DNA of 6,359 nucleotides from a virus (IMGVR_UViG_2695420514_000020:1-6359); one strand, 5' to 3'; shown: positions 777 to 6,359, counted from the stretch's first letter. Program-made: numbers and translations. Notes: a model not told the origin generated them from the letters alone.

Positions 777-779
777 GCA

Positions 780-811
780 CTGTGTATTCATTCCAACGAG
801 TGAATACACGG
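780..811 (+). other. inverted repeat / stem-loop without a U-tract
   Basis: GTGTATTCA (782-790) pairs with TGAATACAC (801-809); the stem extends with C780-G811 and a T781/G810 wobble; 10-nt loop. No T-run follows, so this is not a canonical terminator. It sits in the 185-bp non-coding gap. Confidence 0.4.
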
Positions 812-871
812 AGCAATGTCGCTCGTAACTAAACAGGAGCCGACTTGTTCTGATTATTGGAAATCTTCTTT

Positions 872-896
872 GCCCTCCAGTGTGAGGGCTTTTTTA
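872..896 (+). terminator. rho-independent terminator
   Basis: GC-rich 6-bp stem GCCCTC (872-877) / GAGGGC (884-889), 6-nt loop, followed directly by TTTTTT (890-895). The orientation works only on the + strand. It lies inside the track ORF 857-1132, arguing that ORF is over-extended. Confidence 0.7.
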
Positions 897-961
897 TATG
901 CATACCAATAACGCTTCACTTGAGGCGTTTTCGTTATGCAATCAAACAGAAGGAGCATCCT

Positions 962-1132
962 ATGCAACAGTTCGCTATTGCAGGGGCGGCATCGGTTCGC
1001 CCTTTCAACCCGATTTTATCGGTACAGCATTCACGAAAAAATATTTTAACCGGAGCAGACTTTAAACAACCAAGAATGAAAAGTTTGCTCGAAAAGCTTT
1101 GGGATATTTTGAAACAACAAGGCCGTCCATGA
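962..1132 (+). CDS. CIII-like small regulatory protein (putative FtsH inhibitor, lysogeny control), 56 aa
   Basis: ATG 962 preceded by AGGAG (951-955) with a 6-nt spacer. Product MQQFAIAGAASVRPFNPILSVQHSRKNILTGADFKQPRMKSLLEKLWDILKQQGRP. The N-terminal FAIAG and C-terminal SLLEK...LWDILKQQG resemble lambda CIII (MQYAIAG... ESLLER... KRLIDILNQPG) as I recall it. The position upstream of the recombinase matches the lambda order cIII-kil-gam-bet. Confidence 0.5.
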   Translation: MQQFAIAGAASVRPFNPILSVQHSRKNILTGADFKQPRMKSLLEKLWDILKQQGRP

Positions 1133-1236
1133 GTTTTACAGATAACTGGTCAGACGAAGAATTCATTCGTCAGATGAACAAAATGCTCAATCAGCACAAA
1201 GAACAGGAGAAAGATGATGATTCTGACTCTGAATGA
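1129..1236 (+). CDS. hypothetical small acidic protein (35 aa)
   Basis: ATG 1129 overlaps the CIII-like stop (ATGA). Weak SD AAGG (1119-1122). Product MSFTDNWSDEEFIRQMNKMLNQHKEQEKDDDSDSE; stop TGA 1234-1236. It is below the track length cutoff and overlaps the next gene start by 23 nt. It occupies the kil-like position. Confidence 0.35.
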   Translation: MSFTDNWSDEEFIRQMNKMLNQHKEQEKDDDSDSE

Positions 1237-1525
1237 TAAGCGTGAAATATCGCAAATAATCGCAAGTTTTACTGATGAAGATTACGAACGAATCAACAGT
1301 GAAGTTGATCGTCTCTGCAAACGTTGCGACCCCATAAGCGAAATGCTTCGCTCATATAAACCAGATGAACACACTAAGGACGCTATCGACTGGCTGGAAG
1401 ATGATGACTGTAACTATCAGGAAAAAGCCGCTGAATGGTTCTGGGATGCAATAACCGAAAGAGTTAAGGCTGAATATGCCTTCGCAATATTCAAACGCAG
1501 ACATATTTATGGAGAAGCTGCATGA
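1214..1525 (+). CDS. hypothetical protein (103 aa) immediately upstream of recT
   Basis: Tandem ATGs at 1214 and 1217 follow AGGAGA (1205-1210). Stop TGA 1523-1525 overlaps the recT ATG (ATGA). No family recognised. It occupies the gam-like position. Confidence 0.6.
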   Translation: MMILTLNDKREISQIIASFTDEDYERINSEVDRLCKRCDPISEMLRSYKPDEHTKDAIDWLEDDDCNYQEKAAEWFWDAITERVKAEYAFAIFKRRHIYGEAA

Positions 1526-2424
1526 GCAATATCGTTGAATTCGTTAAACAGCAAGAGCAGTTATTCTGCGGAGCATTGACTGAACAGACGGTGACATGGG
1601 CTAAGGAAAGCCAGTTTGCAATTCAGTATTTCCAGAAAAATGATTACCTGGCTAAAACAGCACTGGCAAATCCAACCAGCGCACAGAACGCCATCATCAA
1701 TGTTGCGGCGATCGGCATCACCTTAAACCCGGCCAGCAAACTGGCTTATCTGGTTCCTCGCGACGGCATGGTGTGCCTTGATATCAGTTACATGGGATTA
1801 CTTCATCTTGCGCAATCGACAGGATCAATTAAGTGGGGGCAATGCAAACTGGTGTACTCAAACGACACCTATGAATCAAATGGCCTTGATTCAGCACCAA
1901 CCCACAAATACAACGCATTTGGTGAGCGAGGCTCTATTGTTGGAGGTTATTGCACGGTTAAAACAGCAGATGGTGACTACCTGACTGAAGAAATGAGTCT
2001 GGCAGAAATTAAAGCTGTGGAAGCAACGAGCAAGGCAAAGAATGGACCGTGGAAAACATTCTGGGAAGAGATGGCGCGTAAAACAATAGTTAAACGCGCC
2101 AGCAAATACTGGCCTAAAGCCCAGCGACTGGATAATGCCATTCACCTTCTTAACGAAGATGAAGGTATGCATCAGGAACCAGTTATGCCGCACAAATCAG
2201 AGGAAGATATCCGCGAAGATGAACGGAAACGCCAGCAGGAAATAATGGATAAAGCACAACTTCTTTGCGATGAAATGGCTCAGGCAGAAAACATGGACGA
2301 TTTGAAGCGATATTTTGCAGAAGCATATCGCCTGACATCTGGAATGAAATTGCAGCAGAACGTACAAGCCATTTACATAGAATGCAAAGCGAAACTGGAG
2401 GTTGCCAGTGAGCAAACTGTATGA
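1522..2424 (+). CDS. recT: RecT-family single-strand annealing recombinase (300 aa)
   Basis: The segment NGPWKTFWEEMARKTIVKRASKYWP closely matches the Rac RecT segment NGPWVTHWEEMAKKTAIRRLFKYLP (from memory). Length and surrounding residues are consistent. SD GGAGAAG (1511-1517). Confidence 0.85.
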   Translation: MSNIVEFVKQQEQLFCGALTEQTVTWAKESQFAIQYFQKNDYLAKTALANPTSAQNAIINVAAIGITLNPASKLAYLVPRDGMVCLDISYMGLLHLAQSTGSIKWGQCKLVYSNDTYESNGLDSAPTHKYNAFGERGSIVGGYCTVKTADGDYLTEEMSLAEIKAVEATSKAKNGPWKTFWEEMARKTIVKRASKYWPKAQRLDNAIHLLNEDEGMHQEPVMPHKSEEDIREDERKRQQEIMDKAQLLCDEMAQAENMDDLKRYFAEAYRLTSGMKLQQNVQAIYIECKAKLEVASEQTV

Positions 2425-2890
2425 AATTGCCAATGAATACGCAAAATTGATGGATTCAGATTTAGAACCAGAGATGATTGCTGACACAATAGAAGGCATG
2501 GAAGGAGAATTTACCGATAAAATAGAGCAACTTCTCGCCATTATTAAAAATGAATCTGGTTATGCTGAACGCCTCAAGGAAGAGGCAAAGTCACTAAATG
2601 AGCGAGCCGTAGTAATTCAAAATAAGATTGACAGCATTATGGCGTATATAGCGTCATCGCTTGAAATGGTTGGCAAGAAAAAGATTCGAGCAGGTATTCA
2701 CCAGGTAACAATCCGCAAACCGTCAGAAACTGTAGAAATCATCGACTCAAGCGCCCTTCCTCCTGAATACGTTGAGTTCGAAACGACAATTAAAGCCGAC
2801 AAACTGGCAATCAAACACCAACTAAAAGCAGGAATAAATATCCCCGGTGCTCAACTCAAAGTTGGGAAACCTTCACTTCTTATCAAATAA
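2408..2890 (+). CDS. Siphovirus Gp157-like protein (about 160 aa), common RecT companion
   Basis: GTG 2408 is 6 nt after GGAGG (2397-2401); the track starts at in-frame TTG 2402. Overlaps the recT 3' end by 17 nt. N-terminal KLYEIANEYAKLMDSD...DTIEGMEGEF followed by a coiled-coil region fits my memory of the Gp157 family (PF05565), which typically sits beside RecT or Erf. Confidence 0.6.
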   Translation: MSKLYEIANEYAKLMDSDLEPEMIADTIEGMEGEFTDKIEQLLAIIKNESGYAERLKEEAKSLNERAVVIQNKIDSIMAYIASSLEMVGKKKIRAGIHQVTIRKPSETVEIIDSSALPPEYVEFETTIKADKLAIKHQLKAGINIPGAQLKVGKPSLLIK

Positions 2891-6167: not shown

Positions 6168-6359
6168 ATGAGCGATACTAGCCTGATTCCTGAGAAAGAA
6201 GTGATGAACAAGCTCGGTGTTTCATCACGTCAGACAATCTGGAACTATACCAAACGGCACGGATTTCCGAAGCCAGTCAGAACCCACCCCAAATCATACC
6301 TTCGTGAAGCTGTTGAAGGGTGGATTCTTAACGGTGGCGTTAATCAGAAATGCTCCTGA
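6168..6359 (+). CDS. AlpA/Xis-family HTH DNA-binding protein (63 aa); putative excisionase or integrase activator
   Basis: ATG 6168 is 7 nt after GGAG (6157-6160). Pattern IPEKEVMNKLGVSSRQTIWNYTKRHGFPKPV...EAVEGWI matches the AlpA/Xis-family arrangement (…EV…G.SR.TIY…G.FPKP…W) as I recall it. The window ends at its stop codon. Confidence 0.65.
   Translation: MSDTSLIPEKEVMNKLGVSSRQTIWNYTKRHGFPKPVRTHPKSYLREAVEGWILNGGVNQKCS

Follow-up and report, generated by a model that had tools for sequence, protein, structure and literature searches.

The locus and its features

The stretch of DNA analysed here (the window) comprises 6,359 nucleotides from a virus (IMGVR_UViG_2695420514_000020:1-6359), and the feature of principal concern is a small gene at positions 962–1132, stop codon included, identified by its motif parts, its homology and its codon bias; like the leader elements and the following ORF described below, it lies on the + strand. 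Reading from ATG 962 to TGA 1130–1132 gives a product of 56 residues, MQQFAIAGAASVRPFNPILSVQHSRKNILTGADFKQPRMKSLLEKLWDILKQQGRP, in which three parts can be distinguished, namely the sequence AIAG at residues 5–8, a family-specific motif at about residues 15–34, and an amphipathic C-terminal helix at about residues 39–54. The gene is referred to below as the cIII-slot gene, on account of its position among its neighbours. CIII itself is a small, lysogeny-promoting inhibitor of the protease FtsH (HflB); it stabilises CII and sigma-32, is itself degraded by FtsH, and is oligomeric.

Between the stop codon of the upstream gene and ATG 962 lies a leader that contains several hairpins. The first stem-loop (777–814, formed by the inverted repeat 777–793/798–814) follows directly after that stop codon and marks the start of a module common to lambda, mEpX1 and HK140, megablast matches to relatives beginning at 776–777. 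Further downstream a terminator scan picks out a hairpin of the intrinsic type at 872–889, which reads GCCCTC-CAGTGT-GAGGGC and then TTTTTTAT, with the T-run occupying 890–897; the equivalent of the whole feature (872–897) was annotated as a rho-independent terminator by the depositors of mEpX1. Just 5' of the Shine-Dalgarno sequence there is a long stem-loop at 899–940 (inverted repeat 899–918/921–940, with 20-bp arms), which is homologous to the cIII leader of lambda and HK022, folds to the same structure in the window and in lambda, and can be aligned at the DNA level with lambda, HK022 and Kapi1. In RNA folding, the hairpins at 872–889 and 910–929 are more stable than shuffled sequence (z = -3.4). 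The Shine-Dalgarno sequence itself, AGGAG at 951–955, is placed 6 nt 5' of ATG 962 and had been called a textbook example in an earlier note on this DNA, and AAGGA is invariant across the aligned cIII leaders.

Comparison at the nucleotide level places this leader very precisely. Window positions 777–900 are 97.6% identical to lambda 34045–33920 (DNA between ral and ea10 that contains a terminator), and in blastn comparisons 900–985 shares 78% identity with lambda 33522–33443 (the cIII leader together with the first eight codons), and 788–955 shares 95.8% identity with the HK022 cIII leader. Nothing in the window matches an Rfam family, and the cIII leader thus has no curated model. In lambda the rate of cIII translation is set by RNase III binding and by alternative mRNA structures (PMC3386247, PMC6524683); lambda-style alternative structures at the start codon are not established for the window, the minimum free energy folds of the window and of lambda differing 3' of the shared leader hairpin.

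Some further features of this region may be mentioned in passing. Insertions recur in the short spacer at 889–899 that separates the terminator hairpin from the stem-loop of the cIII leader, and this hot spot holds an 82-aa gene in Kapi1 (412–706) and, at the same point in lambda, ea10 (33920–33522). Upstream of the leader, a 38-aa ORF (660–776) matches only the C-terminal end (positions 175–215) of the roughly 226-aa family phrog_2201, and before it comes a 32-aa ORF read in a different frame; the region 574–776 as a whole looks like a gene remnant that ends at a mosaic joint (776/777), the point from which the sequence is homologous to lambda, mEpX1 and HK140. A mini-ORF, TTG TTC TGA (845–853), lies 5 nt after an AGGAG at 835–839, and is in frame with and just before TTG 857; this is probably a matter of chance.

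Reality of the gene and choice of start codon

That 962–1132 is a genuine gene with its start at ATG 962 is supported by several observations, including those on the upstream frame given below. Substitutions between the window and five relatives number 7, 5 and 26 at codon positions 1, 2 and 3 respectively; of 5426 complete E. coli genomes, 349 (about 6%) carry the gene; and RefSeq/PGAP calls the 56-aa form (WP_001183771.1, “hypothetical protein”). Among 50,697 phage records searched by tblastn, an identical 56-aa protein occurs in mEpX1, HK140, HK542, SPN9CC and about 30 others, and a family profile search of 1.84 billion representative proteins yields some 34 clusters at 50% identity, with peptides of 56–57 aa from genera that include Escherichia, Salmonella, Klebsiella, Enterobacter, Hafnia, Erwinia, Yersinia and Buttiauxella. 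The gene is itself mosaic, with a joint at about codon 37 (window 1070–1132, codons ~37–56; BIS08P22 510–571), such that two alleles of the C-terminal helix, MKSLLEKLWDILKQQGRP and VKSLLDRLVEFLNQKVQP, are found on near-identical N-terminal two-thirds; the amphipathic pattern is retained between these alleles despite 10 amino-acid changes.

A mechanical ORF call gives a longer reading frame, 857–1132, which starts at a TTG, would encode 91 aa, and spans both the terminator-like hairpin and the second stem-loop at 899–940. The earlier note held this ORF to be over-extended across the hairpin, and rightly so: it starts before 872–889 and its frame traverses the hairpin. TTG 857 has no Shine-Dalgarno sequence at a usable spacing, the AGGAG at 835–839 being 17 nt upstream. 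In relatives the upstream frame is broken in a variety of ways. There is an in-frame stop four codons 5' of the ATG in SEN22; in sal4, SEN22 and BIS08P22 there are indels upstream of the ATG of 1, 2 and 14 nt, none a multiple of three; and in the Hafnia, Erwinia and Yersinia homologues the upstream frame is open for just 5–14 codons. At the position of the terminator, SEN22 and BIS08P22 have a different hairpin sequence and T-run, the structure being retained and the coding lost, and in Kapi1, as in lambda, a whole gene is inserted within the stretch equivalent to 857–961 (in Kapi1, in the middle of it).

The DNA of 857–961 is, moreover, homologous to the non-coding leader of lambda and HK022, and in the alignment of cIII leaders ATG 962 matches the lambda cIII ATG base for base, with a common AAGGAG upstream. 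Conservation in the family begins at M1, and such N-terminal extensions as are found in the databases (P0003, P0016, P0024, P0037 and P0116) are mutually unrelated. Given the broken frame in relatives, the alignment of the lambda ATG at 962 and the onset of conservation at M1, the 91-aa ORF is an over-call, and its upstream part, 857–961, is judged to be non-coding leader. This correction applies equally to the 91-aa “putative cIII” deposited for mEpX1, a record in which the rho-independent terminator is annotated inside the over-called gene, and to the 224-member 91-aa cluster P0003.

Neighbouring genes and the cIII slot

The flanks of the gene are shared with Kapi1 and HK022, where an HK022-type cIII and a kil gene stand in place of window positions 956–1128 (Kapi1 700–1143). 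Since this interval is equivalent to cIII plus kil in those phages, the 56-codon gene can be regarded as another cassette for the slot of cIII (plus kil). From 1129, the ATG of the next ORF, the sequence is once more homologous to HK022 and Kapi1; by blastn, window 1129–1600 is 99.4% identical to Kapi1 and window 1129–1178 is 100% identical to HK022. The ORF in question (1129–1236) encodes 35 aa (MSFTDNWSDEEF…; phrog_17766, E = 5e-16), and its start overlaps the stop codon of the cIII-like gene in the sequence ATGA (1129–1132), a CCATGA junction being present in all relatives; judged from the sequence, this overlap suggests translational coupling of the cIII-like gene to the 35-aa ORF. The 35-aa ORF in turn overlaps the following ORF (1214–1525) by 23 nt, with ATG 1214 lying within ATGATG, and its first 16 residues are common to the HK022 ORF that follows kil, after which the two diverge, indicating a mosaic joint near 1178.

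As to the wider context, the earlier note had assigned the region to the early-left operon of a temperate phage, and the synteny fits this well. Relatives (mEpX1 and an E. coli prophage) have an N gene upstream, and RecT, Gam-like and excisionase-like genes lie downstream. The cIII-slot gene itself comes after N, the tL terminators and the conserved cIII leader and before recombination genes: its slot and its leader are those of cIII in the pL operon of an mEpX1/HK140-like lambdoid prophage. Similar arrangements are seen further afield, in that homologues in Hafnia and Erwinia sit upstream of erf, and of two sister Yersinia phages, 30.14 carries the window type and 29.18 the lambda type of gene, and in both the gene comes first in a series of small ORFs that extends to the recombinase genes. 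The downstream module of the window (1522–2890) comprises RecT (PF03837) and a Sipho_Gp157/Mu-Gam-like protein, rather than the lambda exo-bet-gam or P22 erf genes, and at the end of the window there is an excisionase/AlpA-like ORF (6168–6359), an arrangement that would fit the left end of a pL operon.

Another carrier of the gene is mEpX1, a complete phage with cI, cro-like, N and HK97-like cII genes. A tblastn search of its whole genome (E ≤ 1) reveals no lambda-type or HK022-type cIII and no kil, and the cIII-slot protein is the only cIII candidate in this complete, CII-bearing phage. More generally, kil is usually annotated beside cIII of the lambda and HK022 types, and no Kil (PF06301) was found adjoining the window-type gene in seven phages, which include the window, sal4, BIS08P22, Hafnia, Erwinia and Yersinia 30.14. 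Fusion with or similarity to Kil was considered and rejected (hhalign probability 0.2%, no Pfam PF06301 match), as was the presence of a second, canonical cIII within the window, the P0107 protein not being encoded there.

Similarity to CIII

The earlier note had likened the product to lambda CIII on the strength of a common FAIAG N-terminus and a common SLLE…L.DIL.Q.G segment. The first of these stands only in part, in that AIAG is indeed shared but the literal FAIAG is not, the preceding residue being F here and Y in lambda (MQQFAIAG against MQYAIAG). The spaced residues AIAG…G, to which Kobiler et al. (2007) drew attention, are nevertheless present, and A5, I6 and G8 are near-invariant in the family. 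The second likeness fared better, as it corresponds to the best profile alignment of the C-terminal halves, through to the terminal Q.G.P. Set out in full, lambda CIII reads MQYAIAG...SLLE(17–20)...LIDILNQPG(33–41) and the window protein MQQFAIAG...SLLE(41–44)KLWDILKQQG(46–54), the spacer from SLLE to L.DIL amounting to 12 residues in lambda and to 1 in the window protein.

The check proposed in the same note was pairwise alignment to lambda, HK022 and P22 CIII, with the lack of any significant alignment to members of the CIII family to count against the identification. Pairwise comparison does prove to be non-significant: BLASTP with lambda CIII reaches 15.4 bits (E = 0.025, calculated for the one comparison), and tblastn of the lambda, HK022 and P22 proteins against the window gives 15–17 bits on the ORF, which is the noise level, being equal to chance six-frame matches elsewhere in the window. 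In the opposite direction, a tblastn search of 50,697 phage records with the 56-mer as query retrieves no lambda-type cIII even at E ≤ 10.

The window protein has no match to PF02061 at E ≤ 10 (gathering threshold 25.7 bits; lambda CIII scores 105.4 bits), none to PF08134 (gathering threshold 25 bits; HK022/Kapi1 CIII scores 104.7 bits) and none in NCBIfam, while distant members of its family reach just 14.5–20.8 bits against PF02061, over the N-terminal 15 residues. A search of 1.84 billion representative proteins with the family HMM finds no lambda-type or HK022-type CIII and no bridge to the lambda type; two repeat proteins that appeared in this search are false positives brought in by a LGDFLAQRGQPGD repeat. 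PHROG 550 (“CIII anti-termination”) is matched over the full length of the protein (E = 1e-22, 81 bits), and is matched also by the CIII proteins of lambda (1.4e-31), P22 (3.4e-28), HK022 (2.6e-13), Yersinia and Edwardsiella; the high score of the window protein probably reflects the fact that identical phage proteins are already members.

It is the comparison of profile with profile that gives a clear result. Using hhalign, the window family matches the lambda-type family with a probability of 95.4–95.7%, E of about 1e-8 and a score of 41–42, where 200 column-permuted controls for the full length score 8.5±1.9 (maximum 18.8). When the N-terminal 12 residues are cut from both families the score is 28.4, against 8.0±1.8 (maximum 14.3) in 150 permutations of the C-terminal half, and the alignment then obtained is of SLLEKL-[7]-WD-[4]-ILKQQGRP with SLLERITRKLRDGWKRLIDILNQPGVP. 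By way of calibration, HK022 CIII, which is treated as a class of CIII by Kobiler et al. (PMC1838920), scores 29.6 against the same lambda-type profile. The outcome of the check is therefore divided, pairwise alignment being non-significant and profile comparison, with an hhalign probability of 95%, non-random: profile-level homology to lambda-type CIII is present and clearly non-random, and the protein is a remote homologue.

Anatomy of the protein

The consensus of the family begins with M..(F/L)AIAG, continues through a central F(D/N)(P/A)I.SI(Q/E)(H/F)…NILT(G/S).(D/S)F to a variable, Pro-rich linker, and ends with a C-terminal KS(L/W)L..L…L.Q.G.P. Between the N-terminal motif and the helix there is thus a family-specific motif of about 20 residues, F(N/D)PILS(V/I)QHSRKNILTGADF, and conservation in the family is highest in the central motif SIQHSRKNILTGADF, to which nothing in CIII corresponds. 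What the helix has in common with that of CIII is its two ends, SLLE(K/R)(L/I) and W..L.DIL.Q.G.P. It is shorter than that of lambda by 11 residues, 7 of which (a heptad) are absent family-wide.

The significance of this shortening lies in what is known of lambda CIII, which is described as an oligomeric amphipathic helix that competitively blocks the binding of CII to FtsH; its residues 14–37 are essential and sufficient for activity, and each of the mutations S17A, R24A, L26A, R27A and R32A confers a cIII- phenotype (PMC1838920). In the best C-terminal profile alignment the missing heptad takes in the positions of R24, L26 and R27, and the extra 4-residue gap that of R32, so that as a consequence of the shorter helix counterparts of these four residues are missing, and S17 is the only one of the five to be kept, its counterpart, S41, being nearly invariant.

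In an AF2 model of low overall confidence (pLDDT 61), the window protein has a confident helix only at 42–54 (13 residues; mean pLDDT 84 for the block 41–50) and a low-confidence helix at 17–29, and for lambda-type CIII the prediction is a single helix at 18–37 (20 residues). The hydrophobic moment of residues 38–56 is 0.6–0.67, against 0.9 for lambda and HK022, but as a positive test this quantity was discarded as non-discriminating, since a moment as high is attained by 26% of shuffled sequences. A sequence search of the PDB found no solved relative for either the window-type or the lambda-type family.

Functional interpretation

The slot, the leader and the profile homology all favour a CIII role, as does the want of a competing candidate, and this role is the most likely one: the product of 962–1132, a delayed-early gene, probably does the job of CIII, as a remote CIII homologue that would protect CII by inhibiting FtsH. 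Carried over by analogy from lambda, the course of events would be as follows. Transcription from pL must cross the terminator at 872–897, so that N antitermination should be needed, and the cIII-slot gene would be expressed only once N-modified RNA polymerase reads through it; translation would then begin at ATG 962, 3' of the stem-loop conserved in cIII leaders, and the resulting peptide would transiently block host FtsH/HflKC, in which case CII would survive and lysogeny would be favoured. We infer FtsH inhibition, CII stabilisation and N-dependent expression on this basis; the peptide may bind FtsH differently from lambda CIII. In the literature on mEpX1, SPN9CC, HK022/lambdoid phages and FtsH, no experiment on this variant was found.

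The alternative that survives best is that the protein acts, via its own central motif, on some target other than FtsH, or else on FtsH by a different mode of binding; one version, conceivable because the cassette replaces both genes in modules of the HK022/Kapi1 type, would have a single protein covering the roles of both cIII and kil. That no other part of the family is as well conserved as SIQHSRKNILTGADF, which CIII lacks, that four of the five residues essential in lambda have no counterpart, and that the cassette at 956–1128 substitutes for cIII and kil together, with no Kil (PF06301) beside the window-type gene in seven phages or anywhere in mEpX1, can all be read in this sense. However, the protein does not resemble Kil (hhalign probability 0.2%), the phages sampled are few for a gene as short and fast-evolving as kil, the HK97-like CII of mEpX1 would still need protection, and SpoVM shows that a short amphipathic helix is able to inhibit FtsH (PMC1838920). 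On balance we consider this account unlikely, while taking it seriously. A more far-reaching proposal can be made along similar lines, namely that the family is a third, mechanistically distinct class of cIII-slot protein, which keeps only the ends of the CIII helix and adds the invariant SIQHSRKNILTGADF, replaces both cIII and kil, and binds FtsH/HflKC in some other way or has another host target altogether; this seems rather doubtful, and is put forward only tentatively.

A different kind of objection is that the resemblance to CIII does not reflect common descent of the functional part at all, the N-terminal similarity having arisen through a recombination joint inside the gene and the C-terminal similarity through convergence, or chance, among short amphipathic helices. 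Because the leader and the first eight codons share lambda DNA, the N-terminal similarity could indeed partly reflect recombination: identity with lambda DNA extends only up to codon 8, lambdoid genomes are mosaic, and the same gene contains another joint at about codon 37. It may be added that hhalign runs disagree over the central part of the alignment, and that CIII is missed by the family HMM. Nevertheless the C-terminal half on its own gives 28.4 where the best of 150 permutations gives 14.3, and does so in an alignment that is collinear and reaches the terminal Q.G.P; family-wide, the gap measures precisely one heptad, which is what a deletion inside a helix would be expected to leave; and members from Hafnia, Yersinia and Erwinia that share no DNA with lambda retain AIAG. 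An origin of the resemblance other than by descent is accordingly judged quite improbable. As for the remaining alternative, that the true product is the 91-aa ORF from TTG 857, as in the mEpX1 annotation and the database cluster P0003, neither the frame that is open for 35–36 codons upstream in the window, mEpX1 and phiKp_30 nor the deposition of 91-aa forms in NCBI carries much weight against the lack of a usable Shine-Dalgarno sequence, the terminator hairpin and T-run within the extension, and the disrupted frames, unrelated extensions and aligned lambda ATG described above, and it is exceedingly improbable.

Existing annotation and significance

The identification as cIII is already in the databases, in that the identical protein is deposited as “putative cIII protein” (mEpX1 gp36, JQ182727) and its relatives bear CIII labels: “CIII anti-termination” for HK140, HK542 and SPN9CC, and “CIII-like protease inhibitor” for the homologue from Hafnia phage Pocitis76 (46% identity). 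The PHROG/RefSeq label “CIII anti-termination” is a misnomer, since CIII acts by inhibiting a protease rather than as an antiterminator. A further mislabel may be the Shigella “ral protein” to which the mEpX1 note reports similarity.

What does appear to be undescribed is the existence of a third sequence class, with a shortened helix and a conserved motif of its own; no description of the window type as such a class, in addition to the two (lambda and HK022) of Kobiler et al., was found in the literature. On the interpretation favoured here, namely that the protein probably does the job of CIII, a common E. coli prophage gene that PGAP calls a “hypothetical protein” would be the equivalent of cIII. 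Furthermore, a variant without most of the individually essential residues of lambda CIII, which is yet the sole candidate, bears on the question of which parts of CIII matter for FtsH inhibition. The biological value of all this is modest, and the current view of the lambdoid lysis-lysogeny switch is not overturned.

Comparison with known systems

Lambda CIII (PF02061, Lambda_CIII; “protease FtsH-inhibitory lysogeny factor CIII”) shares with the window protein its position in the pL operon, after a cluster of terminators and before the recombination genes, together with a homologous leader stem-loop, Shine-Dalgarno sequence and ATG, the N-terminal M.(Y/F)AIAG, the elements SLLE… and L.DIL.Q.G.P, and membership of PHROG 550; in size, too, the two are alike (54 aa in lambda against 56 aa here). 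They differ in that the window protein has no PF02061 match, has a helix 11 residues shorter and has the added central motif of about 20 residues, so that where lambda CIII is predicted to form one helix (18–37), the window protein is predicted to be a helix-loop-helix (17–29, at low confidence, and 42–54). In addition, kil is usually annotated beside the lambda type, whereas the window-type gene is not followed by kil.

HK022 CIII (PF08134, “cIII protein family”), the second class of Kobiler et al. (2007), has a near-identical leader (95.8% over 788–955) and an identical downstream junction, the two genes being interchangeable cassettes within the same flanks, as Kapi1 and HK022 illustrate, and an N-terminal M..F..AG is common to both proteins. 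In contrast, only the first 22 residues of HK022 CIII align with the window family (hhalign probability 9%), and the HK022 protein has a long amphipathic helix (μH 0.9) and its gene is followed by kil.

A last comparison may be drawn with SpoVM of Bacillus, which belongs to a different organism and context and for which no sequence relationship is claimed. SpoVM is a short peptide whose amphipathic helix, much shorter than that of lambda CIII, inhibits FtsH (PMC1838920).
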